A DNA stretch of 64,000 nt from a candidate division BRC1 bacterium ADurb.Bin183 (lineage in GTDB: Bacteria > Sumerlaeota > Sumerlaeia > MWCT01): positions 267,110 through 331,109 of the forward strand of contig MWCT01000001.1 of NCBI GenBank assembly GCA_002070185.1, read 5' to 3'. Below are positions 14,079 to 64,000 of the stretch, in pieces. Within the stretch, counting starts at the first letter, position 1, and the number at the start of each line of letters is the position of its first letter. The notes beneath the pieces were generated by a model. The model did not search any database, was not told the origin of the DNA, and was given only the letters and a program-made list of their open reading frames with translations. The translations under genes were made by a program, and so were the position numbers.

Positions 14079-14243
14079 ATTTTTTAATTCCTGTTAACAC
14101 TTATGGTTCAAACGAAAAATATAGTTGCAGCGGCGTCCGGCAATATACAAGAATTTTTGCAATTCGTGACGCCGATATTTTATCGGCATATTTTTTGCCT
14201 TGATATATCGCAGTTATATTTCACGGGCGGAGAAAGGCGTTTG

Positions 14244-44574: not shown

Positions 44575-44608
44575 TGGCGAAAAATCATGCTGAAACAAAC
44601 CTCGCGGT

Positions 44609-47110: not shown

Positions 47111-47208
47111 TTTTTTTATGCGAACTTTTTAATTTGACACATAACCCAAAATTAAAACATTATATATATTTGTGTATAAAAAGAAGTTTTTTGAAGGGTG
47201 AATTTTTT

Positions 47209-47757
47209 ATGCGCAATCCATTTTGTATAAAAATCGTATTTGTTCTCGCTTTATTGATGTTATTCTCTTTTGGTTTTGCACAGACGGAGTCCGATAAACC
47301 AACGCCTAAAATCTTCAGCACATGGAACGGTTTCATGGAGCCCGACCGCTGCGCCTCCGCATGGGCAATCAAAAAATTTGCCGAAAAGGATGCCGTGTTC
47401 AAAATCTACCCTGTGCAAACGACCGCCATGGATGGTGTCTCTTTTGATGTCCCACTGCCCGGCATCTATGCAAGGCAGCGCAATAAAACCATCATGGAGG
47501 CTATCCTTTCCCATCACAAGGTTGAGGACGCCGCCGCATGGCGCGTCGCCTCCATCATCAGGGACATCGAGCTCAATCGTTGGGATAGCCGCGCCACGCC
47601 GGAAGCCGCGGGAGTTGAAGCCGTTATCAATGGGCTGAATAAAATTTCCCGCGATGAAATGGATTGTCTTGAAAAAAGCATGTTAATATTTGATGCCTTA
47701 TACGCCTCATTCCAAAAGGAGGAAAAACCCGTTTCAGCGGAAAAATCCAAACGATGA
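47209..47757 (+). CDS. Small exported protein, possibly chromate-resistance-exported-protein-like (Chrome_Resist family)
   Basis: ATG at 47209 with RBS GAAGGGTG. Signal peptide; the segment WNGFMEPDRCASAWAIKKFAEKDAVFKIYP resembles the conserved core of that family as I recall it. Confidence 0.35.
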   Translation: MRNPFCIKIVFVLALLMLFSFGFAQTESDKPTPKIFSTWNGFMEPDRCASAWAIKKFAEKDAVFKIYPVQTTAMDGVSFDVPLPGIYARQRNKTIMEAILSHHKVEDAAAWRVASIIRDIELNRWDSRATPEAAGVEAVINGLNKISRDEMDCLEKSMLIFDALYASFQKEEKPVSAEKSKR

Positions 47758-48671
47758 AAATAATTTACCGGTTCATACTCCTTTGCCTTTTTGTTATCAT
47801 AGGCAGCCGCATCCAAGCCGATGAGGTCATCCTTTATTCCTCCTTTGAATCGGGCAATTGGGATATTTGGATGATTCACCCCGATAAAAGCAACGCACGA
47901 ATTTTAATCAATTCGCCGCTGGATGAAAAGGCTCCCGCGCTTTCGCCCGACGGCGCATATATCGCCTATCATGATAACAGAGGGAGCGTTCGTATTGCCG
48001 GTCTTGACGGCTCATCGAGCGATGTCCTTGCGCAGTCGCCGGGGCTGAACAGCTATCCCTGTTGGACGCCCGACGGCGCGGGGATTGTGTATTGTTCCCG
48101 CCCATCGCCGACAAAGGAAGCGGCAGGCATTTTTTATAACAAGATTCAGCCGGTCGCCGCCGCAACTCCTATAACGCTGGTTGAGCCGATGGAATCGAAT
48201 AATTTCCCCGCGCTTTCGCCGGACGGCAAGCGCCTTGTTTTTTCGCGTTTTCTGGCGCAGGAAAAACCGCTGAAGCTCCCGCGCGAGCCTCTTATTGAGG
48301 AACTCTACATCCTTGATATAACCAGCGGCAAAATATCGCAGATAACCAACCTGAAAAAAAATAGCGCGCACCCTCGATGGGCGCCCGACGGCGCAAAAAT
48401 AGTTTTCTCATCAAACGCCGCAGGCAGCTATGACCTGTGGCTTGTTGATATTGGAGAAAAAATATCGGAGCCGCGGCGGCTTACTGAGGATCCGGGATTT
48501 GAAGGCTTTCCCGCATGGTCACCCGACGGGGAGAAAATCGTCTTTATCTCGTCGCGCACTGGAAATATGGAACTGTGGATTCTGGATGTTTCAAGCGGAG
48601 GCTGGACGCAGCTCACTAATTCGGAAAAGAAAAGAGATTCGATGGAGCCCTGCTGGGGCAGGCTCCCTTAA
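47754..48671 (+). CDS. TolB-like WD40 (PD40) beta-propeller protein, secreted
   Basis: Start overlaps the upstream stop (ATGA). Repeated PD40 blades: ALSPDGAYIAY, PCWTPDGAGIVYCS, PALSPDGKRLVFSR, PRWAPDGAKIVFSS, PAWSPDGEKIVFISSR. Confidence 0.7.
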   Translation: MKIIYRFILLCLFVIIGSRIQADEVILYSSFESGNWDIWMIHPDKSNARILINSPLDEKAPALSPDGAYIAYHDNRGSVRIAGLDGSSSDVLAQSPGLNSYPCWTPDGAGIVYCSRPSPTKEAAGIFYNKIQPVAAATPITLVEPMESNNFPALSPDGKRLVFSRFLAQEKPLKLPREPLIEELYILDITSGKISQITNLKKNSAHPRWAPDGAKIVFSSNAAGSYDLWLVDIGEKISEPRRLTEDPGFEGFPAWSPDGEKIVFISSRTGNMELWILDVSSGGWTQLTNSEKKRDSMEPCWGRLP

Positions 48672-48695
48672 ATATAGCGGTTTGGAGGGTTTATC

Positions 48696-49865
48696 ATGAG
48701 GCGGCAAATTATTATTTTTACTCTCATTTTCGCCGCTGCGCTTTTGCAGACGGCGGGCGCTTTGGCGCAAATCGAAGCGGAGCCATCGGGATTTTTATCG
48801 AATGTTCAAGTTAGCTCCGATGAACTAAACATCGCCGCAAATGAAAAAACTCGCATCGAATTCAGATTAACACAATCCGCCAAAGTCACGCTCGTGATTT
48901 ACAACGCCGGACATGTTCCTGTTCGGACGCTGGCAACAGACCTGCCATGCGCGGCGGGAGTGAATGCGCTCGAATGGAACGGACGCGATGACGCCGGCGC
49001 GCCGGTTCCCGATGAGGCGTATTATTTTACCATCTCTGCGGTGGGCTCTCGGCAGCAGGTCGCCTCATTTGATCCCGCGCTCACATCCGGCGGCGAACGC
49101 ATCAAGTTCGGCGACGACAACCTGAAGTTTGACGCCGAGGCAGGCGGGATTGTTTATGAGCTCCCGTATGCCGCGCGAGTTCAAATCCGCATCGGCGTTA
49201 CAAACGGTCCTCTTTTGAAAACCCTTGTGCAATGGGCGCCAAGAAAAAAGGGGCGCCATTGCGAGCCGTGGGATCGCAAAGACGCCAGCGGTAGTATCAC
49301 GTTGACTGAGTTGAAAAATTTACGCATTCTGGGACGCGCCATGGCGCTGCCCGAAAAAAGCATCATCGTCAAAGGCGGCGGCGCGGCAAGCGCATCAACC
49401 GAACCCGTTACGCAGGACACGGCATTGCGCAGAACCGCCGTGGATGCCTCTCTGGCAAAAAGGGCGCGCCCCATCGAACCCGCCGCATGGACGCCTTTCG
49501 GCAAAAACACAGACCCTGTTTTTTCGCTCTCGCTGAAATCGGATAAGAACGCCGTTGATACTAAATCCGCGCCCCCATCATCCGAAAAAGGCGTCGCCGT
49601 TCGCGGAGAAACGGCATTCGAAATCGCCCTTGATGACGCCGCGCGCATGGCTCTTATGGAGCAGCGCTTTGAGATAGTATTTTTCGTTGATTATTCCCTT
49701 ATAGGAGAAGTGGAGCAGGGCTACTCGCCCTATACTTGGGTTTGGGACTCGACATCTGTTGCGGATGGACAGCATGTGATAACATTCAACGTTTCCGGTA
49801 TGAACGATCAGATAGGCGCCCAGTCTCTGATTGTTGATGTGCAAAACGGCATCGCTGAAAAGTGA
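48696..49865 (+). CDS. Secreted protein with FlgD-Ig-like beta-sandwich domain(s)
   Basis: Signal peptide; VTLVIYNAGHVPVRTLA...LEWNGRDDAGAPVPDEAYYFTISA resembles the FlgD immunoglobulin-like domain pattern. Confidence 0.4.
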   Translation: MRRQIIIFTLIFAAALLQTAGALAQIEAEPSGFLSNVQVSSDELNIAANEKTRIEFRLTQSAKVTLVIYNAGHVPVRTLATDLPCAAGVNALEWNGRDDAGAPVPDEAYYFTISAVGSRQQVASFDPALTSGGERIKFGDDNLKFDAEAGGIVYELPYAARVQIRIGVTNGPLLKTLVQWAPRKKGRHCEPWDRKDASGSITLTELKNLRILGRAMALPEKSIIVKGGGAASASTEPVTQDTALRRTAVDASLAKRARPIEPAAWTPFGKNTDPVFSLSLKSDKNAVDTKSAPPSSEKGVAVRGETAFEIALDDAARMALMEQRFEIVFFVDYSLIGEVEQGYSPYTWVWDSTSVADGQHVITFNVSGMNDQIGAQSLIVDVQNGIAEK

Positions 49866-49868
49866 GGT

Positions 49869-50420
49869 TTGGTTATGAAACAAAAACGCATCTTCATTTT
49901 ATGCGCCATGAGTTTGGGAATTCTTGCGCCGCTTTTTGCGGGCGATATCGGACTGCGGGGCGAGCTCAACGGCATCGGCGCAGAGTTTTCGCTGCATGTT
50001 TACCTCCAAAACGTTTATGATATTCATGGGCTTGCCTTTGATTTGGTCTATACCACGACGAGCCTTCAATTGAAAGACAGAGACGGCAATCTCGGCAATG
50101 GGGCGCAGCCTGTTATTCAGGAGTGGGGCGTCTTGAGCGAGGGCAATAAAGCGACCGTTCTTATGGAAGGCGCGCTGGAGATGGAACGCGCCGGACGCCT
50201 TGTTATGGGGGCAACGCGAACAGGCTCTCTTGCCGGCGTGGACATTGCCGGACAGAATTCCATCTTAAGCGTGGCAATGATTCTCTTGAAAAATCCGCCG
50301 ACTGCGCCTGTTCTTCAAAATATATATGCGGAGGATCACTGGGGCAATCCCATAGAGTTGAACATTCTGCCGACAGAACTTTATAATCTGCCGCCTATGA
50401 GCCTTTGGCTTTTGCGATAA
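49869..50420 (+). CDS. Small secreted protein, possible cohesin-like beta-sandwich
   Basis: 183 aa with signal peptide. The segment EFSLHVYLQNVYDIHGLAFDLVYTTTSLQL loosely fits the cohesin-domain pattern (V.V......I....F.L.YD...L). Weak, recognition only. Confidence 0.3.
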   Translation: MVMKQKRIFILCAMSLGILAPLFAGDIGLRGELNGIGAEFSLHVYLQNVYDIHGLAFDLVYTTTSLQLKDRDGNLGNGAQPVIQEWGVLSEGNKATVLMEGALEMERAGRLVMGATRTGSLAGVDIAGQNSILSVAMILLKNPPTAPVLQNIYAEDHWGNPIELNILPTELYNLPPMSLWLLR

Positions 50421-50441
50421 ATCATAAAAGGGTGGTTCGCC

Positions 50442-51449
50442 ATGAAATTGAAAAGTTTTTTATTGTTTCTTGTGTTTTTGCCGCTTGTGGGATGCAAGGA
50501 CGGAGCAAAGGGAAATTATGTTACCGCCTATACCGCCCACGACCAGATTTATTCCGAGCCGGTTTTTCAACTTTTCACGGAAAAGACCGGCATCGAGGTG
50601 CGGGCGGTTTATGACACGGAGGCGGTCAAGACCGCCGGTCTGGTGGCGCGTCTGATGGCGGAGGAAAAATCCCCGCAGTGCGACGTCTTTTGGAATAATG
50701 AAATCATTCGCACCATCGCCCTTAAAAAGAAAGGGATGCTGCAGCGTTACCAATCGCCGGAGGCGGCGATGTATCCGTCCGAATATCGCGACTCGGATGG
50801 TTTTTGGACCGGGTTTGGCGGCAGGGCGCGCGTGTTTATCTACAACAAGAATTTGATTAAGGATACTTCGGAGCTGCCCAATTCTATCTTTGCGCTCAAA
50901 GACCCCGCTTGGAAAGGGAAAACTGCCATCGGCAAGCCGCTCTTCGGCACAACGGCAACACATGCCGCTTTCCTTTTTGCCAAAATGGGTTCCTCCAATG
51001 CGAAACAATTTTTATTGGATATGAAAAAAAATGAAGTCATCGTAACAGCGGGCAACGCTATGGTCAGGGACATGGTCGCGCACGGGCGCGTGCCGTTGGG
51101 GCTGACGGACACCGATGATGTAAACGGCGCCATCGAGGACGGTTTTCCTGTGGATATGATTTACCCCGATTCTGACGCCGATAAAACGCTGGTTATTCCA
51201 AACACCGTTTCGCTTATCAAAGGCGCGCCGCATCCCGAAAACGGCAAACGGCTGATAGATTTTCTCCTCTCCCGAGAGACGGAGGAATTTCTAAATAGAA
51301 ATCGCGCGGCGCAGATTCCGCTTCGCACAGACGCAACATCCAATGCCCGCATTCCGGCGCTTAAAGACATCCCCTATGAGCATGTGGACTGGGAAAAGGT
51401 TGCGGACGCTCTGGATGAAAGCACGGAGTTTATTCAAAAAGAGTTTTAA
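50442..51449 (+). CDS. ABC transporter periplasmic substrate-binding lipoprotein (FbpA/iron(III)-type family)
   Basis: Lipoprotein signal (LVGCKDG); length and pattern typical of a type-2 periplasmic binding protein of the Fe3+/thiamine/polyamine cluster. Confidence 0.6.
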   Translation: MKLKSFLLFLVFLPLVGCKDGAKGNYVTAYTAHDQIYSEPVFQLFTEKTGIEVRAVYDTEAVKTAGLVARLMAEEKSPQCDVFWNNEIIRTIALKKKGMLQRYQSPEAAMYPSEYRDSDGFWTGFGGRARVFIYNKNLIKDTSELPNSIFALKDPAWKGKTAIGKPLFGTTATHAAFLFAKMGSSNAKQFLLDMKKNEVIVTAGNAMVRDMVAHGRVPLGLTDTDDVNGAIEDGFPVDMIYPDSDADKTLVIPNTVSLIKGAPHPENGKRLIDFLLSRETEEFLNRNRAAQIPLRTDATSNARIPALKDIPYEHVDWEKVADALDESTEFIQKEF

Positions 51450-53113
51450 TGAAAGAACAGATTACAATGCCCATGATTAGATGCGGCACAAAATGCGGCA
51501 AAGCCGAAAAAGGTTTTACCCGCTGGCAGCTGCGTGAGGCGGTTTTTCTTATTTTTGCCGTTCCTTTTTTACTGCCGCTTTTTGACCTTTTTATGGCATG
51601 GGGAGATATGGGGGCGCTGTGGAAAAGCCCCGCGGGCGGCGTTCGCCTTTTCAAAATTATGGGAAATAGCGCGCTTTTGAGTCTTTGCTGCGGGTTGGTT
51701 GCGGTGTGTCTGGGATGTCCAGCAGGAATTCTGGCGGCTGTATCGGGAGAAAGAATCCGCCTTGCCATCGGCGCGTCCAGTCTCATGCTCTTTGTCATTC
51801 CGTCCAACGTGCTTGTTGTGGGTCTTCTCACGCTTGCTTATTATATTCCGGCGCTGGATGTGTTTTTATATTCATTTATCGGCGCGGCGTTGATTCAGGG
51901 CTGGGCGCTGAGTCCGCTTGTCTTTTTCCCCGTTTACATGGCAACGCGCTCTTTCCCTCGCGAGTGGAACGATATGGGGCTGCTCGATTCCGGGCGCAGC
52001 GGCTTGATGCTGCGATTATGGTTTCCGCTGGCAGCCGTCCCCGCCTTGATGGGGGGCGGTCTGGCGATTCTTTTGAGTTATGGGGATTTTGTGATACCGG
52101 ATATTTTATTTTCGCGCAATCCACGATTCGGGATGGTTTTTTCAACGGAGATTCAGGCGGCGTTTGCGGGATTTTTTGATCTGGAGCGGGCGCGCAGGTT
52201 GGGCGCGCTTTTTATTCCTTTTCCGATTGCAATTGCCGCAGGGCTCCTTTTTTTGTTGCCCAGATTTCATGAGACGAGGGGGTTGGATGCTCATACGGTC
52301 GCGGAAGCCGCCGCCCCAAAGCCGCATCGGGAACGTTTTGATTTTGTAAAATTTGCCGTTTCGATTTTTCCTTTTATGTCATCTTTGCTGTTGATGATTT
52401 CGCTCGCGGCTCTGGCTTGGATGCTTCTGCGGGATGCCTCCGCATGGAAGGCGGTGTGGCGCTCCGCAAGCGATGAATTGTTTGGGTCGCTGATTGTCTG
52501 CGGGCTTTGCGCCGCGTTCATACTCTTTGCTGGAATTTTGATGAGTTCGCTTTTATTGATGAGACGCAACGGGAGGCGGGGCGCGCCATCGCCCGGTCTT
52601 GCCGTCTTCGGTTTTTCCGCCTTGCTTTCTTATTTTCTACCCGGCTCAATTGCAGGGGTTTTTCTGCTTAGAATCTTCAGCGTCCCGCATTTTGCCGATT
52701 TGAGAAGCACGGTCATTCCGCTTATTGCGCTTTATTTTTTGAGGGGGGCGGGGCTTGCGCTGCCGATTATTTTGATTTCCGCCGCGGCGGTTCCAGAGGA
52801 AAGGATTGCGCTTGCGCAAACGGACGGCTGCAGGTTTTGGGGACGGATTCGCCATGTGCTGGCTCCTTCGTGTTGGCGTTTTTGGCTTGCCGCGTTCATG
52901 TTGGTGTTCCCCGTTCTGATGGGCGAAACCGCAGGCGCCATGATTGTAAGCCCGCCGGGTTACACGCCGCTTTCTGTCCGCATCCAGACGGTGATGCATT
53001 ACGGACCGGGCGCTTATGTTTCAGTTTTGTGTTTGATGAGCGCCGCCTCCGCGCTGTCGGTTGTGGCGGCGGCGGGATATGTTTTTCGTAAAGGATTATT
53101 TATCACCGAATAA
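51449..53113 (+). CDS. ABC transporter permease with two fused permease domains (FbpB-like)
   Basis: 554 aa, ~12 TM helices in two homologous halves, as in iron(III) ABC permeases. Start overlaps the binding-protein stop by 1 nt (TAATG). No ATPase gene is adjacent on either side. Confidence 0.65.
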   Translation: MKEQITMPMIRCGTKCGKAEKGFTRWQLREAVFLIFAVPFLLPLFDLFMAWGDMGALWKSPAGGVRLFKIMGNSALLSLCCGLVAVCLGCPAGILAAVSGERIRLAIGASSLMLFVIPSNVLVVGLLTLAYYIPALDVFLYSFIGAALIQGWALSPLVFFPVYMATRSFPREWNDMGLLDSGRSGLMLRLWFPLAAVPALMGGGLAILLSYGDFVIPDILFSRNPRFGMVFSTEIQAAFAGFFDLERARRLGALFIPFPIAIAAGLLFLLPRFHETRGLDAHTVAEAAAPKPHRERFDFVKFAVSIFPFMSSLLLMISLAALAWMLLRDASAWKAVWRSASDELFGSLIVCGLCAAFILFAGILMSSLLLMRRNGRRGAPSPGLAVFGFSALLSYFLPGSIAGVFLLRIFSVPHFADLRSTVIPLIALYFLRGAGLALPIILISAAAVPEERIALAQTDGCRFWGRIRHVLAPSCWRFWLAAFMLVFPVLMGETAGAMIVSPPGYTPLSVRIQTVMHYGPGAYVSVLCLMSAASALSVVAAAGYVFRKGLFITE

Positions 53114-53132
53114 ACGAATTCGAGGGGAGCTT

Positions 53133-56100
53133 ATGAAAACCAAGTTGTTCCTTTCTGTGTATATGCTTTTTTTCTGCGCTTTGTTCCTGTCGGTTTATGC
53201 GCTGCCGCCGGATATAGACCAAACCGACCGCGTGGACGGCAAGGATTTAATCCGCTTTTCCCGCGCATGGCAGAAAAAAACGGGCGAGGAGGGATGGAAC
53301 GAGCGCGCCGACCTTGATTATTCGGGGCTTATTGACGAGGAGGATTATAAAATTCTCCAGCTTTATTTCGGATTGCAGGGGCGCGTCCGCCGTGTCTGGA
53401 TTTCGCAGGGAACGCCCAACACCATCATGCGTTTTGCCGATGATGGCGAACTCATCGGCAGTTTTAGCGGCGCGGGCAATCCCCGTTTGTTCGCCCTGTT
53501 CCCGGGCGACGGTTCCCTCTGGTCTCTCAATACATCGCAGGGCAAATTGTTTCATTATGATAGCAACGGACGGCTTCTTTCCACCGTGAGCGGCTTCAAT
53601 ACTCCAGCGGCGCTTTCCGTGAATGAAAAAACCGGACAGTGCTGGGTTGCCAACACTGTCAGAAAAAATGTCGTCCTTATTTCGCCGGATGTCCCCGCTG
53701 ACTATAATATCGCTTCGCAAACAGGATTTCATAAAACCATCGGCGGCTTCAATGAGCCCGTCTCCGTTTCTGTGGATTCGACGGACGGTTCCTGCTGGGT
53801 TGCCGACGCCAAAGTAAGCCAAATCATCAAACTGGACGCAAACGGAGATAAAGAGCTTTTGCGGATTGGCGGCTTTCCCAACGCCAGCCTTGTCATCGTA
53901 AATCCCGTTGACGGCGCCGTCTGGGTTGAAACAAATGATTACTTCATTAGACAAACCGTCAAATGTCTTACCAGCGGCGTCAGAATAAAAGCATTCGATT
54001 CAGGGGCGCTTCTTTGCGTCAGCCGCAATGATGGCTCCGTTCTTGTTCAAGGAACAACGTATAGCGAGGTCTGCCGCATCAGCGCAAATGGCGAAGAGAT
54101 TTTCCGCGTTGGAGGCTTCGGCTGGATTATAGCTGCCTTTGCCGATCCGGTCAGCGGCTGCTTCTGGCTGCTGGATCAAGAAAAAAATGAAGTGGTGAAA
54201 CTCTCCGCAGGCGGGGCGACGCTCCTGCGTATAGGCGGCGTTTTTGGGCAGCTTTCATCTGGCGCGATAGATGACGGCGAACCGACTTTTTCATCCTATC
54301 CCCGCGCCGCTGTTCAGGCGTCGCCGCTAAAAGGCGGCGTCCCTCTCAAAGTCTTTTTTGCCGCTCAAATAGAAAATGCGGGCGGCGCGATTTTAAATTA
54401 TCAGTGGGATTTTGACGGCGACGGTCTCTTTGACTGGATGTCTCAGACAACCGGCGATGTTAGCCACACATATGAAACACCGGGCATCTATAATCCCATT
54501 TTCCGCGCGGTGAATGAAAAGGGGCTCGCGGCGGTCAACACGTCCCTCCTCATAACAGCGGGGGAGCCGGAGATTCGCCTGGACGCAAGCCCCGCAAGCG
54601 GCGCGGCGCCTCTAAAGATCGCATTGAATACAATTCTGCTGAACATTCCCAGAACTGCTGTTCATGCCATTTTGTATGATTTGGATGGCGACGGCAATTT
54701 TGATGCGCTTTACGAAGGCAAAGATATATTGAAAGGCTTAAGTGTTTCTCACACATACCGCAAAATTGGCGACTTCTATCCGATGGCTAAAGTTGTCTTG
54801 CAGGAGGGCGGCGAGGTTTGCGCGTCCGCAACCGTGGAGGTTCATTCTCCCGCCCCAACCGTCAAGGCATCCGCCAAACCCGCGCAGGGCTACATGCCGC
54901 TTTCTGTGGAGCTTTCCGCGCAGGCAAAAGATGATGACGGCAGCGTTGTTTTATATGAATGGGATTTTGATAATGACGGCATATTCGACTGGCGCAGCAC
55001 AACGCAATCCAACGTCTTGAATGTGTATCGCCAAAAAGGCAATTTCACGGCATTGGTGCGCGTGACTGATAATGACGGCTTACAGGCGTCCGACGTTGTC
55101 CCGATTCGGGTCTTAAACAAACCGCCGGATGTGACGGCGGATGCCGAACCGCGCAAGGGAAACGTCCCGCTGTTGGTCAATCTCAAGGGACAGGCGACCG
55201 ATGCCGATGGGAGCGTTGTCCTGTATGAATGGTCGCCGAAGGGCGACGGCAATTTCATCTGGCAATCCCCCTCCGCCGGTCTGACCTCATATACCTATAC
55301 TGAGCCGGGGATTTATCATGCAACCTTTCGCGCCACAGATGACGAAGGCTCCAGCGCCACAAAAACCGTTGCCATTGAAGTGCGGAATGCGGGCAAGCCT
55401 TTTGCTTTGCCGGATGCCGCGCCCCGCAGCGGCGCCGCCCCGCTCAATGTCAATTTCACCGCCGCCGGTTCCGATGACGATGGCTCGATTGTCCTTTATG
55501 AATGGTTTTTTGAACTGCCCTACGAGCGCCTTGACCAGTTGTGGAAACGCCCCCTTGCCGATGATTATTCCTCGCCGGATTCTTATTGCGGCATCGCCTA
55601 CAACAAAGCGACCGGACATCTCATCTTTGCCTCTAACGGGGGCAAAAATTTTCCCGCTGGATTTTACATCATTGACCCGGCAACCGGTCGGACCATCGGC
55701 AAACTTTCGGAAAACGGTGTCTCATTTATGTCATTATCCTCTGCGCCGAGACGCAAGGCAATAGGCATTGCGCCCAGCGGGAAGATTTTCCATCAGGACG
55801 GCAACGGCGATATTGTGATGTGGGCGAACGAGGGCGCCAAGCCTGTCGTTGTTTATGACGACACGGAAAATGATGAATTCTCGCACACCATTGATGTTAT
55901 CGAACCGGCGGGCGTCGTGTATGTTTATACCTGCCGGTATGCGACGAAAGAGATAAAGATTTTTCGGCTCGATGGCGCGCTTCTTACGCATGTGAATACC
56001 GTTTCATGCAGCCCCGCCGGAAACACCGTCGGCACCGGCATCGCAGTTTCCGCCGATGGAAAGACTTTATACACCTCGTATAAATCTCTTGTTCTTTCGA

Positions 56101-59100
56101 AATGGGTCAGCCCGACCGGACCTTTGGGAACTTACACCCGCGACGCAACTTTTGCCCCGACTCAAACCGCGCCGGAATCCATCGCGCTGGGTTATGCGGA
56201 GTCTTTTCCGGAAAAGCCGACCGCGCTTCTTGGAACTCTGCATGATTCCCCGGCTGATAAGATATTCTTCTTTGATGCCGCCGGCGTAGAGTCGAGAAGT
56301 CCCGCCTTGATTGAAGGCGCGGGTTACCGTTCTTACGCATCGGATATTGATGTGGATTGGGAGAATCGCCGTATTTTTTACGGTTTTGGTGTGAACGGAA
56401 TCGGCTGCATTCATTTTTCGCCCGGCGCTTACTGGTCGTCTCCAACCCCCGGCACAATCGCGCACCAATATAACGTCTGGGGCGTTTATCATCCCATGCT
56501 CCGCGTGAGGGATAATTCCGGCTTCACGGACGAAACCGCTCTGGAGATTAACGTTCTTTCCCCTCCGTCTGCGAAAATTATTTTCCCTGAAAATAATGTG
56601 ATATCTTATCGCAACAACCTCATATTCCGCGGTTCGGGCGAGGACAAGGACGGACAGATTGTCAAATATGAATGGGACTTTGACGGCGACGGGACTTGGG
56701 ACTGGGCATCGGATAAAGAGGAGAATGCGACGTGGGCGGATGCCGATTTTGCCGAACACAACGCCTTTTTTCGCGTGACCGATTCGGACGGGCTGCAGGA
56801 TACTGTCTCGACTCATTACAAGATTGTTTCCAGCGCGCCAAAAGTTGCCGCTCAGGCGGAGCCCGCCCGAGGCAACGTCCCTGTAACCGTCACGTTCAAT
56901 GGAACCGCAACAGACGCCGATGGATGGATTCTTGATTATATGTGGGACTTTGATGGCGACGGGATTTTTGACTGGTTCAATGGAGAGCCGCGCGGCGCGG
57001 TGATTGCATGCACAAGCGAATCGCCCAATTCAAAGGCGGATAAGCTCATTGACGGCAGCCTTGCCACCAACAACTATTGGTTGAGCGCCGCTAACCCCGC
57101 CTTTCCCATTGATATCACCTTCAAACTCAAAGGCGACACCAGCCAGCAGATAGACCGAATCATACTCAGCACGAAAAACCCCATATCCGCCAACTATCGA
57201 GTAAAGGACTTTGAAGCGCATATAACCGATGAGGAAACCGCTGAAAATTTCGTCCCTTGGATTCGCGGAACAATGAACAGCGTTGCAGAAGAACAGACCT
57301 TTACATCTATCACATTAAGCGCAAAATATGTCAAACTGCGCATCCTTTCCGTCGAGAAAGGAACATCTTATGCGTCGCTGGGCGAATTTGAGGTTTATGC
57401 AGGCAAGAGAAATGTTCTCACCAATCCGGGCGCAAAAGCGACTTACATTTTCAATACACCCGGAATATACAATGCCGAACTTCGCGTCATTGATAACGAC
57501 GGTTTCGCCGGCAGCGATGTGATTCCTATCCAAGTCAATGCCAGCAATTCCCCAGCGGCGTCCATTATCGCCATGGAGCCTTCGCCGGGATGGCGAACCG
57601 AACCCATCCTTTTCATGGGTATCGGCGAGGACGCCAACGGTCAGGTGGTTAAATATGAATGGGATTTGGAGGGCGACGGGACTTACGATTTGGAGCAGAC
57701 CAAATCCGGCAGCGTTGTTTCATGGACAAGCCAATATAACACCACCACCTACGCCGCGAAAAATATTATTGACGGTCTGGCGGAGAATAGCAAGGGCTGG
57801 CGTTCCAACAGCGTCAACTTCCCGCAGGAACTTGTCATGCAGCTTGCCGATGCCGAAGGGGGCTCGCCGGTCAATCTGGCGTGTGTCGCCATCAATGTTG
57901 CGATAGGAAATCCCAATAACAATTGCGCAAAGGATTTCACTGTTTCCGTTTCCTCAACCGCCGCCGACTCCGGCTTTTCAGATGTCGGTTCATTTCAGGC
58001 GATGCGGAGCAAGGGATATCAGATTTTCACTTTTGCGCCCGCGCCGGCTCGCTGGCTGAAAATCTCCGTCACATCAAATTACGGCGGCGGATTCGTGGAG
58101 ATTGCTGAAATCTGCGCAGCGGGCAAGCCGCCTGCGCGCAACCAGCTCGCGCCCGGCGGCGCCTTTGCCCAGTATAATTTCAGCGGAAATTACAAGCCGA
58201 CCTTTCGCGTTACAGATAATGATGGTTTGATGGATTGGGCATCGCAAAAACTCGTCATCAATTCCGAGTCGCAAAAACTCGGCAGCGTCTGGGTGGCGGT
58301 TACAGGGGCGCATACGGTGAAACGGCTATCGCCTATGGGCGATGAACTCTGGTCGTTTGAATCGCTCCGTTTTCCATGGTCTGTCGCCGCCAATGTCAAC
58401 ACAAAGGATTGCTGGATTGCCAATACGCAGGGGCATAATGTTGTTAAACTCGATCCGCAGGGGGCGGAGAAGCTCCGCATTGCCGGATACAACAACCTTA
58501 AAAAAGTCGAGGTGAATCCGGTGAACGGCGTCTGCTGGGTCAGCGACACTTCCAATCATCAAGTGGTGCGATTGAGCGCGGATGGGACTCAGGAGGCGCG
58601 CATCAGCGGGTTTAGCGGTCCCACCGGGCTATCGGTATATCAGGCGGATGGCTCCTGTTGGGTGGCGGATGTGTATAATAATGGGCGCGTTGTCAAACTT
58701 GCGGCGAACACCCCTGATGGGTATGATATCAGCACGCAGACGGGTTTTCATATTTTCCGCACGGGATTCAGGGAGCCGCAAGCCCTCGCGGTCAATCAGA
58801 TGGATGGAACGTGTGTTGTGGCGGATAATAAGAACAATCAGGTCGTCCTTTTAAATGAGGAGGCAAGTGAGGAAATATGGCGCATCAGCGGCATCGGCAG
58901 CCCCATCGGCATCAGCGTCAATCCCCGAGATGGCAATATCTGGGTTGCCGACCAGTCAAGCCACCGCGTTGTGCGGCTTGCTCCCGACGGAAATGAAGTG
59001 TTTCGCGTCAGCGGTTTTAATCATCCAGGCGCTATCAGCGTTAATAACCTTGATGGAACATGCTGGGTGGCGGACACGGATAACAATCGGGTGGTAAAAC

Positions 59101-62100
59101 TTGCGCCTAATGGAAATATCATTTTGACCCAAACCGGAAACACCCAGCCGCGCGGCATTTATGTGGATTCAGGCGAGGGGGCGTTCAACCCCGCGCCGAC
59201 ATTCAAGGCAATTGCCGGAGCCTCCGCGCTGGAAGGAGCCGTGCCTCTTGTCGTCTCGTTCACCGCCGCATCGCAGGGCGGCGGAAATATCATACGTTAC
59301 GAGTGGGATTTTGAAGGCGACGGCGTTTTCGATTACAGCTCCCCAGCCACCGGCGATGTGGAACATGTGTATGAAGATTTCGGCATCTTCAATGCTGTGT
59401 TGAGAATAACCGATGAAAATCATCAGGTGGCTTATGATTATCACTTGATTCTCAAAGCACAGGGCATAAGGGCGACCGCAATCGCCATCCCCACTGAGGG
59501 TTTTGCTCCCCTGAGCGTGGTTTTTTCCCATGCGGGATTTTCGCAAAACCCAATAACAAAATATGAATGGGATTTCAACGGCGATGGAAAAATTGACAGA
59601 CAGACATCCGATGCCGCCGCCAAACTTACATATACCTATAATCGGGCGGGGACATGGACGGCGTTTCTGACTGTGACAGACTCAGCTGGCAAAACCGCCC
59701 AAACTGCCGTTGTGTTGAACATCGCTCCAAACCCGCCTGACGTGCACAATGCGTTGGTGTCAACGCGAATCGTTTTGGGACGGACGCTTGTCAGTTTTGA
59801 CGCCACAAGGGCGTTTGACTATGATGGCAGCATTGTCCTTTATGAATGGGACTATGACGGCGACGGCATTTATGATTGGCATTCAAAAACGCCTCTTATT
59901 GCGGAATATGTTTATCCCGCGCCCGGAATATACCGCCCCATATTCCGCGCCACAGATAATGACGGGTTGTCTTCAACTAAACAATTTGAATTAACCATTC
60001 CTAATTCCGCGCCAGTTGCTAAAGCCAATGCAGAGCCAGCCATCGGACGCGCCCCGCTCACCGTTCAATTCTCCGGCGATTGCGCCGATTATGATGGCAG
60101 CATCGCCCTTTATGAATGGGATTTCAACGGCGACGAGATTTACGATTGGTCGTCCAATCTGACGGCGACAGTCAGCCATTCCTACAACACGCCGGCGGAA
60201 TACACGGCAACGCTTCGCGTCACGGATAATCTGGGCGCGACCGCAACCAGCAGCGTTCCCATTTCTGTCAAGAATACAAACGACCCCATTGTGGCGCTCA
60301 ACGGCGCGCCGCTGGAAGGCGTCTTTCCGCTGCTTGTGAATTTTAACGCCGTTCCCCAAAACCCCGCAAATCCCATCGTGCGCTATGAATGGGATTTCGG
60401 CGAGGCAAAATGGACAGAGGCGGACGGCTATTTGCGACAGATGCTCTGGCTCGGCGCGTTCAAGGCAACAGGCGGCAATGATGTGACAAGCCACATGCCT
60501 GATATTGAAAAAGGCAACCCCTCTGATAAAGACACCTTTGCCGGTCGTGTCTGGTCGAAAACAAATTCATCCTCAAGCGGCATTTTCAATCTTGTGCCAA
60601 AATTCGGCGGCAAAAAGAATTTCGCTTATAGTCTTGTTTATCTTTACTCGAAAGAGGCGCAGCGCGTCCGATTTAGTTACGGCGCCAAAGACTCTGCTCG
60701 ATTCTGGATTAATGAAAGCCTTGTGGAAACAAGGGTTTTTTCCGGCTCATTTGCCTTTGACCAATTTCAGTTTGAGGCGGACCTAAAGGCGGGATGGAAC
60801 AAGGTTCTTGTTGCTGTTTCCCATGAAACGAGTTCATGGGCATTCGCCTGTCGAATCACCGACCTTGCCAACGCGCCGATTCGTTTTTTGCATTCCGTTG
60901 TGGAGCCTTATTCGGCTTCGCCCTTTGTGCAAAACGGCGCCGCCACCGCCTCGTTTGGTTATCGGCATCCGGGGGTGTATAATGTCAAAGTAACAGCTTA
61001 TGATTCTGCGGCAAAGCAGGCTTCCGCTGAACTGTCTGTCAGGGTTTTGAATAACCCCATACCGGTTGCCCTGCCAAGGGTGCATCCCCTGAGCGGACCT
61101 GCCCCTCTTTCGTGCCGATTCGAAACAAATGCAAAGGTTTCGACGGGTGTGATTTACTATTATACATGGGATCTTGGGGACGGTCGAACTTTTGACGACT
61201 GCGGCAATATTCCGCGAAATTTCAGCCATACGTATTATTTCCCCGGAGTTTATCGCGCGACGCTTTTTGTTAAGGATGACGCCGGTATAATCGGGCAGGG
61301 CAGCGTTGATATCACCGTTTTTGATGCCGAAAAAATCACTGCAGAAATAGAGGCGTCGCCTATTTCCGGCAAAGCGCCGCTCGACGTTCAATTCATCGGG
61401 CGAGTCAAAAGCATTTCTGGCATGGTTCGGCTCTTTGAATGGGATTTCAATGGCGATGGTATTTATGACCTTAACGGACCTGACGCCGCTGAACCGCTAT
61501 TCAAATTCACAACACCCGGACAATACACCGTGAAACTGCGCGTTACGGACGACCGCGGCAATAAAGCAACCGCGGAAAAGACGATTTATGCGGGCGTGTC
61601 CGCCGGACCTCAAATTCAAATCACGGCGAATCCCGAAAGCGGCGCCGCCTCGTGTATAATCGCATTTGAGGCGGATGTGAAACCGGGCGATAATTCAGAT
61701 ATTAACATCGAATGGGATTTTGACGGAAATGGAACTTATGATGAAATTACCTCGCTTGGAGCGGACGGAAAATCCGCAACTTCCCATATCTACACGCTGC
61801 CCGGGTTGTATAATGTCCGGGCTCGCGCCAAAGACGGACTGGGGCGCATCGGCGAAACCGCCCTTTCGCTGCCCATCGCCTTTTCTATCAACGCATGGCG
61901 CAGCGCCGAGGTTTTGTCCCCGCTTCTCAATCAGACTATGAGCGTGCAGTCTGTCATCGGCTCGCCTGCGCGGATAACGGTCTGGATTGAAAATGCAAAA
62001 GGCGAGGTTGTGAAATATCTGGCGCAGGATGCAGATCGCGCCGCCGGATACTACTCCGATGTCTGGGACGGATGCGACAGCGGCGGGAATTATGCGCCTC

Positions 62101-62831
62101 ATGGGACGTATTATTTTTATCTGCGTTATTCCGCGGGCGATATAACGGGGCTCATTGACCACGAAAAACCCATGACTCCGATAAAAGGTTATGAGTATGG
62201 CGACAACCCCACATTCACCTATCCCTCGCGCTTCCATGCTCTTGAAGACCGCCCCTTCTATCTTTCATACACCATGAATGAGTTTTCCGATGTGTTCTCC
62301 TTTATCAGCGATGTAGGCGCACGCAATCCCATTGACCCGTGGGTTGCGCCGCTTTCCATAAAGGAGGCGCGCCCTGCCGGTAATTATATTGATATCTGGG
62401 ACGGCACAAACGGACGAAAAAGATTCATTCCGACCCTATCTGAAGCAGCCGTTATCGGCGTCTGGTCATGGAAGCTTCCGGATAATGCCGTCCTTCTTTC
62501 GATGCGCCCGCAAATCTCCGGCGTCACCAAAGACCCCGATTATCTTTACCCTCTGCCCAGCCCCTATAAAGATACGGATGGATTGACCATACAATATACA
62601 ATCTCGTGCCCTGCGTATGTCCAGATTGATATCGAGTCGGATGACGGCGCGCTTGTGAAACGCATAGAGCAGACGCACGATACCGCCGGAGCAAAAAGCG
62701 CATTTTGGGACGGGTTTAATACAGATGGGACGCCGCCATTGCCCGGTGTCTATAAAATTCATTTATCAGCGCTCGATAGCTACGGCAATGAGTCGCTGCA
62801 TGTTTATGATCTCTTCAGGATTCAGTATTAG
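53133..62831 (+). CDS. Giant secreted multidomain surface protein (3232 aa): dockerin-like N-terminus, NHL-type beta-propellers, ~13 PKD domains, two discoidin (F5/8 type C)-like domains, a lectin-like domain and C-terminal FlgD-Ig-like domains
   Basis: ATG at 53133 with GAGGGGA RBS and signal peptide MKTKLFLSVYMLFFCALFLSVYA. Ca-binding-loop-like DIDQTDRVDGKD...DLDYSGLIDEEDY; NHL blades (DGSCWVAD..N.VVKL); recurrent YEWDFDGDG PKD cores; KLIDGSLATNNYW and NIIDGLAENSKGWRS discoidin-type starts. Confidence 0.8.
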   Translation: MKTKLFLSVYMLFFCALFLSVYALPPDIDQTDRVDGKDLIRFSRAWQKKTGEEGWNERADLDYSGLIDEEDYKILQLYFGLQGRVRRVWISQGTPNTIMRFADDGELIGSFSGAGNPRLFALFPGDGSLWSLNTSQGKLFHYDSNGRLLSTVSGFNTPAALSVNEKTGQCWVANTVRKNVVLISPDVPADYNIASQTGFHKTIGGFNEPVSVSVDSTDGSCWVADAKVSQIIKLDANGDKELLRIGGFPNASLVIVNPVDGAVWVETNDYFIRQTVKCLTSGVRIKAFDSGALLCVSRNDGSVLVQGTTYSEVCRISANGEEIFRVGGFGWIIAAFADPVSGCFWLLDQEKNEVVKLSAGGATLLRIGGVFGQLSSGAIDDGEPTFSSYPRAAVQASPLKGGVPLKVFFAAQIENAGGAILNYQWDFDGDGLFDWMSQTTGDVSHTYETPGIYNPIFRAVNEKGLAAVNTSLLITAGEPEIRLDASPASGAAPLKIALNTILLNIPRTAVHAILYDLDGDGNFDALYEGKDILKGLSVSHTYRKIGDFYPMAKVVLQEGGEVCASATVEVHSPAPTVKASAKPAQGYMPLSVELSAQAKDDDGSVVLYEWDFDNDGIFDWRSTTQSNVLNVYRQKGNFTALVRVTDNDGLQASDVVPIRVLNKPPDVTADAEPRKGNVPLLVNLKGQATDADGSVVLYEWSPKGDGNFIWQSPSAGLTSYTYTEPGIYHATFRATDDEGSSATKTVAIEVRNAGKPFALPDAAPRSGAAPLNVNFTAAGSDDDGSIVLYEWFFELPYERLDQLWKRPLADDYSSPDSYCGIAYNKATGHLIFASNGGKNFPAGFYIIDPATGRTIGKLSENGVSFMSLSSAPRRKAIGIAPSGKIFHQDGNGDIVMWANEGAKPVVVYDDTENDEFSHTIDVIEPAGVVYVYTCRYATKEIKIFRLDGALLTHVNTVSCSPAGNTVGTGIAVSADGKTLYTSYKSLVLSKWVSPTGPLGTYTRDATFAPTQTAPESIALGYAESFPEKPTALLGTLHDSPADKIFFFDAAGVESRSPALIEGAGYRSYASDIDVDWENRRIFYGFGVNGIGCIHFSPGAYWSSPTPGTIAHQYNVWGVYHPMLRVRDNSGFTDETALEINVLSPPSAKIIFPENNVISYRNNLIFRGSGEDKDGQIVKYEWDFDGDGTWDWASDKEENATWADADFAEHNAFFRVTDSDGLQDTVSTHYKIVSSAPKVAAQAEPARGNVPVTVTFNGTATDADGWILDYMWDFDGDGIFDWFNGEPRGAVIACTSESPNSKADKLIDGSLATNNYWLSAANPAFPIDITFKLKGDTSQQIDRIILSTKNPISANYRVKDFEAHITDEETAENFVPWIRGTMNSVAEEQTFTSITLSAKYVKLRILSVEKGTSYASLGEFEVYAGKRNVLTNPGAKATYIFNTPGIYNAELRVIDNDGFAGSDVIPIQVNASNSPAASIIAMEPSPGWRTEPILFMGIGEDANGQVVKYEWDLEGDGTYDLEQTKSGSVVSWTSQYNTTTYAAKNIIDGLAENSKGWRSNSVNFPQELVMQLADAEGGSPVNLACVAINVAIGNPNNNCAKDFTVSVSSTAADSGFSDVGSFQAMRSKGYQIFTFAPAPARWLKISVTSNYGGGFVEIAEICAAGKPPARNQLAPGGAFAQYNFSGNYKPTFRVTDNDGLMDWASQKLVINSESQKLGSVWVAVTGAHTVKRLSPMGDELWSFESLRFPWSVAANVNTKDCWIANTQGHNVVKLDPQGAEKLRIAGYNNLKKVEVNPVNGVCWVSDTSNHQVVRLSADGTQEARISGFSGPTGLSVYQADGSCWVADVYNNGRVVKLAANTPDGYDISTQTGFHIFRTGFREPQALAVNQMDGTCVVADNKNNQVVLLNEEASEEIWRISGIGSPIGISVNPRDGNIWVADQSSHRVVRLAPDGNEVFRVSGFNHPGAISVNNLDGTCWVADTDNNRVVKLAPNGNIILTQTGNTQPRGIYVDSGEGAFNPAPTFKAIAGASALEGAVPLVVSFTAASQGGGNIIRYEWDFEGDGVFDYSSPATGDVEHVYEDFGIFNAVLRITDENHQVAYDYHLILKAQGIRATAIAIPTEGFAPLSVVFSHAGFSQNPITKYEWDFNGDGKIDRQTSDAAAKLTYTYNRAGTWTAFLTVTDSAGKTAQTAVVLNIAPNPPDVHNALVSTRIVLGRTLVSFDATRAFDYDGSIVLYEWDYDGDGIYDWHSKTPLIAEYVYPAPGIYRPIFRATDNDGLSSTKQFELTIPNSAPVAKANAEPAIGRAPLTVQFSGDCADYDGSIALYEWDFNGDEIYDWSSNLTATVSHSYNTPAEYTATLRVTDNLGATATSSVPISVKNTNDPIVALNGAPLEGVFPLLVNFNAVPQNPANPIVRYEWDFGEAKWTEADGYLRQMLWLGAFKATGGNDVTSHMPDIEKGNPSDKDTFAGRVWSKTNSSSSGIFNLVPKFGGKKNFAYSLVYLYSKEAQRVRFSYGAKDSARFWINESLVETRVFSGSFAFDQFQFEADLKAGWNKVLVAVSHETSSWAFACRITDLANAPIRFLHSVVEPYSASPFVQNGAATASFGYRHPGVYNVKVTAYDSAAKQASAELSVRVLNNPIPVALPRVHPLSGPAPLSCRFETNAKVSTGVIYYYTWDLGDGRTFDDCGNIPRNFSHTYYFPGVYRATLFVKDDAGIIGQGSVDITVFDAEKITAEIEASPISGKAPLDVQFIGRVKSISGMVRLFEWDFNGDGIYDLNGPDAAEPLFKFTTPGQYTVKLRVTDDRGNKATAEKTIYAGVSAGPQIQITANPESGAASCIIAFEADVKPGDNSDINIEWDFDGNGTYDEITSLGADGKSATSHIYTLPGLYNVRARAKDGLGRIGETALSLPIAFSINAWRSAEVLSPLLNQTMSVQSVIGSPARITVWIENAKGEVVKYLAQDADRAAGYYSDVWDGCDSGGNYAPHGTYYFYLRYSAGDITGLIDHEKPMTPIKGYEYGDNPTFTYPSRFHALEDRPFYLSYTMNEFSDVFSFISDVGARNPIDPWVAPLSIKEARPAGNYIDIWDGTNGRKRFIPTLSEAAVIGVWSWKLPDNAVLLSMRPQISGVTKDPDYLYPLPSPYKDTDGLTIQYTISCPAYVQIDIESDDGALVKRIEQTHDTAGAKSAFWDGFNTDGTPPLPGVYKIHLSALDSYGNESLHVYDLFRIQY

Positions 62832-62858
62832 GAGAAACCGCCTAAAAGGAGGCATTCG

Positions 62859-64000
62859 ATGATTCGTTGGAGTTTTTATCAAGCGCTATGTGCGGCGATG
62901 GCGGTCTTGTTGTTGCTTGCCATCGCGCCGCGCGCATTTTCCGTGGACCATCCGTGGGACACTTGGCATGTCTATTTCCCGAGCGTACCGGATATTCCCG
63001 AGCCGGATAACGACAGGGATGATGACAAGCAAGAGGATGCCGACCCTATTCTTTCGGCGGAGGGCAATTATGTTTATCCCCACACAGATTTGTGGATAAA
63101 AGGACGCAATCCCGCGCTCAAAATTCGCCGTGTCTATGACTCTATGTATGCCTGGTATTTGGGACCCTTTGGCTATGGATGGAGTTTTATCTACGACATC
63201 ACATTCACCAAAGTTTACCGACCTATGATGGCGGGCGGCGGCAGAGCGGCAGAGGAGTCGGATAAACAGCCGGATACAAAAACAGCCTCTTTCTGGGGCG
63301 GGCTGGGCGGTGTCATCATACGTATGCCGGAGGGCAAATCTATCTTTTTCAAATGGAATGGCGGCGTCTTCGAACCTCCTGCGGGCTCCAAATACACCCT
63401 CGACAACGAACTGGTTCTTAAACACAAGGATGGAATTTATTACAAATTTCAGGGCAGCGATGATGTTCGCAAGGTCAGCTTCATCGGCAACGCCTATGGC
63501 GAGGCTTTGACGCTCACCTATGACAACAGCGGAAAACTGATAAAAGTTGCCGACCGTTTCAACCGCTTTATCAACATCTCCTATAATCTGAATAATAAAA
63601 TTTCCTCCGTCACGGATTTCACCGGACGCTCCTGCTCTTATGACTATGATGATGAGGGCAACCTTATCGCCTACACCAATCCCTGCGGCTATAAAACGTT
63701 CTATGCCTATAACGCCGAGCATAGAATAATCAGCGTCTCCAACCAATCCGGACAGGTCTGGCTCTCCAATACATACAATCAGTGGGGCAAGGTCATCCAG
63801 CAAATCCACCTCGGCGGTGTTTACACCTTTGAATATGATACCATGAACAAACGGACAACCGTCACGTATCCCAACGGCGGACAGTGGATAAAAAAATGGG
63901 ATGATTCCCGGCGCAATGTGGAAAGCACAGACCCGTATGGTTTCAAGACAATTCGGGAGTGGGATGATTTTTCCAATGCCGCAATTATCACAAATAAAAG
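62859..64000 (+). CDS. RHS/YD-repeat protein, 5' part (runs off the window end)
   Basis: Not in the supplied track because it has no stop in the window. ATG at 62859 follows AAAGGAGG. Hand translation gives MIRWSFYQALCAAMAVLLLLAIAPRAFS then YD-repeat units (YDYDDEGNLIAYTNPCGYKTFYAYNAEHRIISV, YTFEYDTMNKRTTVTYPNGG), open to nt 64000. Confidence 0.65.
   Translation, partial: MIRWSFYQALCAAMAVLLLLAIAPRAFSVDHPWDTWHVYFPSVPDIPEPDNDRDDDKQEDADPILSAEGNYVYPHTDLWIKGRNPALKIRRVYDSMYAWYLGPFGYGWSFIYDITFTKVYRPMMAGGGRAAEESDKQPDTKTASFWGGLGGVIIRMPEGKSIFFKWNGGVFEPPAGSKYTLDNELVLKHKDGIYYKFQGSDDVRKVSFIGNAYGEALTLTYDNSGKLIKVADRFNRFINISYNLNNKISSVTDFTGRSCSYDYDDEGNLIAYTNPCGYKTFYAYNAEHRIISVSNQSGQVWLSNTYNQWGKVIQQIHLGGVYTFEYDTMNKRTTVTYPNGGQWIKKWDDSRRNVESTDPYGFKTIREWDDFSNAAIITNK

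Follow-up and report, generated by a model that had tools for sequence, protein, structure and literature searches.

What do eight adjacent genes do when all of them encode exported or membrane proteins and no published description of their combination was found in the literature that we searched? The question arises at the end of a 64,000-nt window (the whole stretch of DNA analysed here, from the BRC1/Sumerlaeota bacterium ADurb.Bin183), where eight genes, here named g1 to g8, run on the plus strand from 47209 to the window end at 64000. An earlier annotation made from the letters alone (the sequence-only reading) had called this cluster its best candidate for an uncharacterised cell-surface assembly or contact-dependent system. 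Our analysis supports that reading, and of the testable observations that would have spoken against it none was made. We propose that the eight genes form one conserved cell-envelope system of three modules. The first, a putative anchoring module, would consist of the PD40 propeller protein g2, the FlgD_ig protein g3 and the cohesin g4; the second would combine the giant PKD/NHL/discoidin adhesin g7 with the Sec-exported polymorphic Rhs toxin g8; and the third would comprise an FbpA-family ATP-binding cassette (ABC) importer (g5 and g6) and the exported ChrB_C protein g1. We consider the chances that this proposal, its mechanism included, is right to be about even.

Rhs toxins are known to reach their targets via type VI secretion, Tc-toxin injectors or wall-anchored WapA-like proteins, and cohesin-dockerin joints are known mainly from cellulosomes. 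In the cluster described here, an Rhs toxin exported by Sec is encoded together with a giant adhesin, a TolB-like propeller, a cohesin-dockerin pair and an importer for nutrients. If these parts act together, uncultured bacteria would have a new means of attaching to their neighbours and attacking them, cohesin-dockerin joints would gain a role beyond polysaccharide breakdown, and hundreds of 'hypothetical' divergent cohesins missed by profile libraries would gain a function.

Eight tightly packed genes encode exported or membrane proteins

The junctions between the eight genes range from -4 to +27 nt. Genes g1 and g2 overlap in an ATGA at 47754-47757 and g5 and g6 share a TAATG at 51447-51451; both can be read directly in the sequence, and the open reading frames (ORFs) lie where the sequence-only reading had placed them. 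The remaining intergenic gaps measure, in cluster order, 24, 3-9, 21, 19 and 27 nt, and a scan of the gaps found no terminator-like site inside the cluster.

On the source contig (locus L051) the Rhs gene g8 closes the cluster, which contains exactly eight genes, and a convergent GAF-GGDEF-EAL gene lies 80 nt beyond it. The upstream limit is set by a divergent GxGYxYP glycoside-hydrolase-like gene on the minus strand, ending at 47110, followed by an AT-rich gap of 98 nt. This gap holds a promoter-like site (47134..47163, plus strand; TTGACA, 18 nt spacer, CATTAT) that matches the consensus at 10 of 12 positions in a consensus scan, a consensus match only. The ribosome-binding-like sequence AAGGG is found 8-10 nt 5′ of the g1 ATG at 47209.

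By eye, N-terminal signal peptides can be recognised on g1-g4, g7 and g8, a lipobox (LVGC) on g5 and a polytopic membrane topology in g6, in keeping with the earlier statement that all products are exported or membrane proteins. Domains were assigned from Pfam and NCBIfam scans, for which g7 was scanned whole and as ten segments. These scans confirmed the PKD, NHL, F5_F8_type_C, RHS and ABC binding-protein and permease domains.

g4 is a divergent cohesin

Gene g4 (49875..50420, plus strand, with an alternative start at 49869) encodes 181 aa (183 aa in the sequence-only reading) made up of a signal peptide, a cohesin domain and the conserved tail PPMSLWLLR. Public records label it 'hypothetical protein'. 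The protein has zero matches in Pfam and NCBIfam, even at E up to 10, and does not reach the gathering score of Pfam Cohesin (PF00963). A single-sequence phmmer search of g4 against the PDB gave a chance match only, and a word-indexed homologue search returned only 2 relatives for g4 and 3 for g6.

An exhaustive phmmer search with g4 over 1.8 billion representative proteins gave 52 matches. PF00963 is present in 43 of them, and the region homologous to g4 is their N-terminal domain. Orthologues in syntenic positions match Pfam Cohesin directly, for example at residues 29-167 of the protein at locus L007 and residues 42-162 of that at L010. From the exhaustive HMMER search we built a 38-sequence domain alignment (A3). 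The A3 family profile matches 21 PDB chains, all of them cohesins or cohesin-like modules, with 3l8q as the best match (2.7e-9).

The AlphaFold2 model of g4 computed with A3 is a beta-sandwich with a predicted local distance difference test (pLDDT) score of 92.9 and a predicted template-modelling (pTM) score of 0.82. The 38-sequence alignment was needed for this confident model, since three near-identical sequences yielded a pLDDT of only 29.8. When the model was compared with the PDB by Foldseek, the best 50 matches listed were all cohesins (E down to 4.4e-9, target-normalised TM scores of 0.6-0.76). These 50 include types I and II as well as archaeal and Clostridium perfringens non-cellulosomal cohesins.

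The cohesin-like pattern that had been noticed in the small protein is thereby explained: transitive homology, the family profile and the structure model all identify g4 as a cohesin, with a predicted cohesin fold (a nine-stranded beta-sandwich, jelly-roll).

The tail of the stand-alone cohesin (50388-50420) is conserved in L001, L004 and L025 as PP-x-S/T-L/M-W-L/M-L-R. It reads PPVTMWMLR in a relative with 43% identity and is modelled with lower confidence (pLDDT about 73-79). It is below the length of a membrane helix and has no match to any sorting signal known to us.

A dockerin opens the giant protein g7

The giant secreted surface protein g7 (53133..62831, plus strand; 3232 aa) had been noted to begin with dockerin-like calcium-binding loops. 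This module lies at 53205..53381 on the plus strand (residues 25-83) and contains two F-hand calcium-binding loops, DIDQTDRVDGKD and DLDYSGLIDEED, which read as canonical and whose positions 1, 3, 5, 9 and 12 are occupied by acidic or polar residues. Pfam Dockerin_1 (PF00404) spans 3-55 of its 57 profile positions on g7, at an E of 0.024 and 15.3 bits, below its cut-off of 22.9. A single-sequence phmmer search of the module against the PDB found chain 2y3n_B at 6.6e-5. With a four-sequence dockerin profile (A5) the same chain was matched at 3.8e-10, and the 19 matches of A5 are nearly all named dockerins or dockerin-bearing cellulosomal proteins. From these loops and matches, we assign the segment of g7 that follows the signal peptide to a genuine two-loop dockerin.

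A single cohesin and a single dockerin are encoded in the whole window, 2.7 kb from each other within the cluster. The closest homologues of the g7 N-terminus (27-32% identity) keep the succession signal peptide-dockerin-NHL-PKD; three sequences served to judge whether giant homologues carry a dockerin, namely the L043 protein and two N-terminal fragments (P0057, P0059).

After the dockerin, g7 continues with an NHL propeller, PKD repeats, an F5_F8_type_C domain, a second NHL propeller, further PKD repeats and two FlgD_ig domains. In all it holds at least 11 PKD domains and two NHL/Vgb_lyase propellers. The F5/8 type C (discoidin) domain (PF00754, residues 1291-1418) lies at 57003..57386, the second NHL/Vgb_lyase-type beta-propeller (PF24684 at residues 1748-2013; NHL 1.5e-16) at 58374..59171, and the C-terminal region with the two FlgD_ig domains (PF13860 at residues 2938-3001 and about 3163-3218) at 61944..62786, all on the plus strand. 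On the last segment CHU_C gives a weak match of 20.6 bits against a cut-off of 27.

The N-terminal ~230 residues of g3 (48696-49400) are paralogous to the C-terminal FlgD_ig region of g7 (61900-62560), with 22-34% identity in BLAST. The paralogy hints that the two regions might interact homotypically or share a recognition module.

L016 (2-5616) encodes a smaller dockerin-NHL-PKD-FlgD_ig protein, split into three ORFs, probably by assembly frameshifts. The gene before it ends in a dockerin, and the 7.5-kb contig is without Rhs or cohesin.

An Rhs protein with variable toxin ends

The last gene, g8 (62859..64000, plus strand), is cut by the window end. It encodes an Rhs toxin with a Sec signal, DUF6531 and RHS/YD repeats. 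On L051 the full-length protein of 1257 aa contains 12 stretches of RHS repeats, and its RHS core closes with ...NNPQLFRDPSG, which includes a DPxG-type motif. The C-terminal 135 residues (L051 23088-23500, about 66220-66632 in window numbering) are Cys-rich and contain a glycine-zipper-like hydrophobic stretch, AADFAAGGVVGVIGGCAAGAAIPG. This region has no family match in Pfam, and its composition suggests a toxin that is probably membrane-active.

Rhs orthologues in the related clusters all have DUF6531 and RHS repeats and differ in their C-terminal ends. These ends are a phospholipase A2 (Phospholip_A2_3) in L005, Ntox16 in L044 and a lipase-like sequence with an AHSHGG motif in L047, and the others received no assignment. 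Differing C-terminal ends among orthologues are a hallmark of polymorphic toxins, and the suggestion of a contact-dependent role for the cluster is strengthened by them. By contrast, 1244- and 1257-aa Rhs variants in the public protein cluster, considered as a further sign of toxin polymorphism, were rejected as such: they reflect different start calls only.

The N-terminus of g8 is a Sec-type signal peptide followed by DUF6531. No type VI features (no PAAR/VgrG-type N-terminus) were found among the annotated genes. TEN_YD-shell matches of g8 are weak, and one public record names the protein 'WapA precursor'.

The gene after Rhs follows within 115 nt in L005 and within 23 nt in L010. In L024 (8602-9033) and L033 (4165-5004), small exported proteins with the common motif YP-x-L-x-DDGTHGD lie between Rhs and PD40. 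Other loci have unrelated small variable ORFs 3′ of Rhs; these could be immunity or accessory proteins.

Three modules recur in changing order among relatives

The best marker of the conserved core is g3 (48696..49865, plus strand), an exported FlgD_ig/Big_7 protein of 389 aa (FlgD_ig 2.4e-12, Big_7 3.1e-4). Its neighbour g2 (47754..48671, plus strand) is an exported PD40 (TolB-like) beta-propeller protein of 305 aa (PD40 1.1e-40), on which the TolB models match far under their cut-offs. We searched genomes and metagenomes with an alignment of g3 (A4) and obtained 40 loci, which fall into 27 groups at 85% identity. The sources are sediments, groundwater and digesters. Six of the 27 groups are single-gene fragments, and weak partial matches in L013 and in L014 and L015 (Nitrospirae metagenome-assembled genomes) were not counted as clusters.

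The g3 proteins of these groups are 30-81% identical to that of the window (median 34%), and the cluster genes are always on one strand. PD40 is present next to g3 in 22 of the 27 groups, Rhs in 13, the cohesin in 12, the substrate-binding protein (SBP) in 11, the giant protein in 10, ChrB_C in 9 and the ATPase in 6. Many contigs are short and these counts are lower bounds.

Three modules recur whose internal order is fixed and whose mutual order varies: giant protein and Rhs; SBP-permease-ATPase-ChrB_C; and PD40-g3-cohesin. For example, the nine genes of L010, on one strand with overlapping or short junctions, read giant-Rhs-SBP-permease-ATPase-ChrB_C-PD40-g3-cohesin. In L005, from the 33-37% identity tier, the order is giant, Rhs, ChrB_C, PD40, g3 and a 1229-aa cohesin protein, without ABC genes. 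L007 has SBP-permease-ATPase-ChrB_C-PD40-g3-cohesin, and the 9 kb upstream of these genes contain neither a giant nor an Rhs gene. A close relative has g1-g7 in identical order (g4 83% identical, the other products 76-88%). In the relative with 43% identity, the order is g3, cohesin, SBP and permease, and the roughly 700 nt that follow contain no giant gene.

Conservation of the gene order, proposed earlier as a check on the cluster, thus extends far past close relatives. Given the recurrence in 27 g3 groups, we judge that the arrangement is not due to chance. The co-occurrence of the modules on one strand in divergent lineages, with changing order, argues for functional linkage rather than inherited adjacency.

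The cohesin and dockerin also vary in their placement. The cohesin protein of L010 bears its own C-terminal dockerin (Cohesin 57.9 bits, Dockerin_1 40.7 bits), with a similar protein in L023 and another in L037. In L043, a cluster without a cohesin, the short PKD protein is without a dockerin. These placements support a picture in which the cohesin-dockerin pair is a feature internal to the cluster, carried by varying proteins; they support a partner within the cluster and would also allow self-association.

The ABC importer has lost its ATPase from the cluster

The third module starts with g5 (50442..51449, plus strand), a predicted lipoprotein substrate-binding protein of 335 aa of the FbpA/PhnS/AfuA group (SBP_bac_6/1/8/11, with PhnS below its cut-off). 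Its nearest PDB chains are HitA, YfuA, a PhnS-like protein, P5PA and AfuA, and its nearest solved relatives bind Fe3+, 2-aminoethylphosphonate, sugar phosphates or pyridoxal phosphate. We considered a classical ferric-ion transporter with Tyr-ligated Fe3+ and rejected it. In one pairwise alignment the 'NNYYW' stretch of HitA, whose tyrosines we take to be the Tyr-Tyr iron ligands, aligns with 'TDTDDV' of g5. The ligands seem to be replaced, which makes classical Tyr-ligated iron binding by g5 unlikely.

The permease g6 (51449..53113, plus strand; 554 aa) is a fused double ABC importer permease with two BPD_transp_1 stretches. EAA-type coupling loops were recognised in its second half by pattern and in its first half by eye. 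The sequence-only reading had described a binding protein and permease without an ATPase. This holds here, as the ABC ATPase signature LSGGQ is found neither in the 64-kb window nor in the 10 kb past g7 on the source contig.

In relatives the ATPase is part of the cluster (L007, L010, L019, L030, L033, L039 and L043), positioned between the permease and ChrB_C, and a g1 homologue usually follows it. The ABC genes therefore belong to the system and do not come from an unrelated context, and the absence of the ATPase here is best read as a lineage-specific loss from the cluster. To judge from these loci, the ATPase has left the cluster only in the lineage of the window (the window, L001 and L004). 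The EAA-type loop kept in g6 leads us to expect a partner ATPase encoded elsewhere.

Compared with the permeases of ATPase-bearing clusters (L007, L010, L019, L030, L033), g6 shows 22-27% identity, whereas those permeases are 29-53% identical among themselves. There is no comparable gap for the binding proteins (45-55% versus 49-71%). The divergence of g6 would fit adaptation to a different ATPase.

Gene g1 (47209..47757, plus strand) encodes an exported ChrB_C-domain protein of 182 aa (PF09828, 9.6e-24). Alignments with homologues of 186-210 aa begin at g1 residue 8-12, which supports the start at 47209 and the signal peptide. Public gene calls begin g1 at a later Met (47335), giving 140 aa with the signal peptide removed.

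A proposed envelope system and its alternatives

How could these parts work together? In the mechanism that we propose, all parts would be exported by Sec. The g4 cohesin would bind the N-terminal dockerin of g7 in a calcium-dependent manner and so hold g7 at the cell surface, where its propellers, PKD and discoidin domains would bind a target surface. The Rhs shell of g8 would carry the 135-residue C-terminal toxin, probably membrane-active, as its payload. The co-inherited importer, with an ATPase encoded elsewhere in this lineage, would take up a small charged solute rather than classical Tyr-ligated Fe3+.

A more specific version, which we put forward only tentatively and which has a smallish chance of being right, sees in the cluster a type VI-independent apparatus for Rhs delivery. 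The cohesin-dockerin joint and a PD40/FlgD_ig base would hold the adhesin that presents the Rhs capsule to a target cell, and the importer would harvest the contents set free from the damaged target. Such a compact predation or contact-killing-and-feeding machine, if real, would exist in several uncultured lineages. An ADurb.Bin183-like organism is common in anaerobic digesters, so that transcript and protein data are obtainable.

Several observations weigh against a single system. Of the related clusters with room for a cohesin, about half are without one. Together with the dockerin that is sometimes found on the cohesin protein itself, this means that we infer the g4-g7 pairing rather than observe it. 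L050 and L037 hold the PD40-g3-cohesin trio without giant, Rhs or ABC genes nearby, which indicates that modules can work apart; the neighbours of the trio there are other large Ig-rich surface proteins or a TonB-dependent receptor. In the window itself the cluster is without an ATPase and g4 is without a recognisable membrane or wall anchor. Finally, no immunity gene lies 3′ of g8 on L051, where the next gene is convergent, and a missing downstream immunity gene is unusual for toxins aimed at kin.

In L037 the TonB-dependent receptor (12161-14449) follows the cohesin-dockerin protein, where other loci have the FbpA-type ABC importer. It appears to be a second link between the core and nutrient uptake.

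The alternative that survives best is that the three modules are independent envelope functions which merely tend to cluster, with g4 and the g7 dockerin pairing with other partners and g4 perhaps with none. Modules are indeed found apart, as in L007, L005 and the L050 and L037 trios, and the cohesin proteins with a dockerin of their own (L010, L023, L037) could self-associate or bind another partner. Nevertheless, many divergent lineages (g3 at 30-46% identity) have these three modules together on one strand, in changing order, and the sole cohesin and sole dockerin of the window both lie in the cluster. We regard independence as a serious possibility, at somewhat better than one chance in four.

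Less probable, and in our view unlikely, is that the PD40-g3-(cohesin) core forms a secretion or attachment pathway resembling type IX, which would sort C-terminal FlgD_ig domains, with g7 as cargo and the dockerin secondary. This would suit the two FlgD_ig domains and the weak CHU_C match at the end of g7, the likeness of g3 to this C-terminal part, the short PKD protein of L043, which ends alike, and the cohesin protein of L007, whose C-terminal end is FlgD_ig and gives a weak 22-bit match to Por_Secre_tail. The PD40 protein g2 also has a very weak match to PorE. However, every type IX match stays under its curated cut-off (PorE at 18 bits against 600), and no type IX genes were recognised among the annotated proteins, which cover the window from about 29.9 kb on and some loci only.

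A cellulosome-like assembly for polysaccharide degradation is very improbable and we reject it. In its favour are the cohesin and the dockerin, the possible sugar binding of discoidin domains and the GxGYxYP glycoside-hydrolase-like gene immediately upstream on the minus strand. Against it, the eight proteins of the cluster include only one cohesin and one dockerin, none is a multi-cohesin scaffoldin, none has a catalytic carbohydrate-active domain, and the conserved partner is an Rhs toxin.

Relation to known systems

The one-system proposal can be set beside several known systems. Closest to the g4-g7 pair are non-cellulosomal cohesin-dockerin pairs (for example the Archaeoglobus fulgidus cohesin 2xdh and the Clostridium perfringens NagJ cohesin-like module 2jh2), in which one cohesin and one dockerin are likewise borne by secreted proteins that are not cellulolytic. 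The g4 model matches both structures in fold, and NagJ chains appear in the A3 profile search with weak E-values of 0.14-0.32. In contrast to those pairs, the dockerin here is N-terminal on a 3232-residue PKD/NHL protein and the 181-residue cohesin stands alone in a cluster with Rhs, PD40 and ABC genes. The g7 dockerin has its best sequence match in chain B of the type II complex of Pseudobacteroides cellulosolvens (2y3n), whose chain A is matched by the g4 profile (8.4e-4) and by the model. That complex joins cellulases to a multi-cohesin scaffoldin and has ~14% identity to g4, whereas no enzymes or scaffoldin are found here.

For g8 the nearest parallels are bacterial teneurin-like proteins (PMC13018210) and WapA-type Rhs proteins. 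These are likewise Sec-exported YD/Rhs shells with polymorphic C-terminal toxins, adhesion domains and NHL propellers, and do not depend on type VI. Teneurin-like proteins have C-terminal domains of ~15 kDa, one of which damages membranes, and carry adhesion domains, NHL propeller and shell in one polypeptide, followed by an immunity gene (PMC13018210). In our cluster, by contrast, one gene (g7) encodes the NHL/adhesion part and another (g8) the YD shell, g8 is not followed by an immunity gene, and nothing in those systems corresponds to the conserved PD40, FlgD_ig, cohesin and ABC genes.

The importer resembles FbpABC, AfuABC and PhnSTUV in the family of its binding protein, its fused double permease and, in relatives, the adjacent ATPase. 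It differs from them in that the cluster here has no ATPase, the Tyr-Tyr pair is seemingly replaced, and the importer sits amid surface-protein and toxin genes together with an exported ChrB_C protein.

A looser parallel is offered by the dockerin-type giant proteins of Omnitrophota (bioRxiv 10.1101/2023.11.21.568195), which are extracellular, contain dockerin and discoidin modules and have been proposed to mediate attachment to other cells. Like g7, they are very large proteins of uncultured bacteria with both kinds of module. The Omnitrophota proteins exceed 30,000 residues, contain numerous dockerin/TSP3 repeats, end in membrane anchors and are associated with a type II secretion-like locus, whereas our cluster has a single dockerin, at the N-terminus of g7, a cohesin encoded by its own gene and Rhs as a partner.

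Overall, the cluster looks like a combination of non-cellulosomal cohesin-dockerin pairing with a type VI-independent Rhs toxin. Both kinds are known; we did not find the combination described.

Neighbouring genes

Upstream of the cluster, two large, secreted-looking proteins are encoded on the plus strand: a fusion of a metallophosphoesterase with a PQQ/BamB-like propeller (34458-36638) and a 1057-aa subtilase (37876-41049). In the relatives examined, neither is conserved alongside the cluster. Between them and the cluster, on the minus strand (41101-44715), lies a 1204-aa fusion of a major facilitator superfamily transporter, an acyltransferase and an AMP-binding enzyme, an architecture like that of Aas/LplT lysophospholipid recycling. 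This ORF overlaps the start region of the neighbouring GxGYxYP gene.

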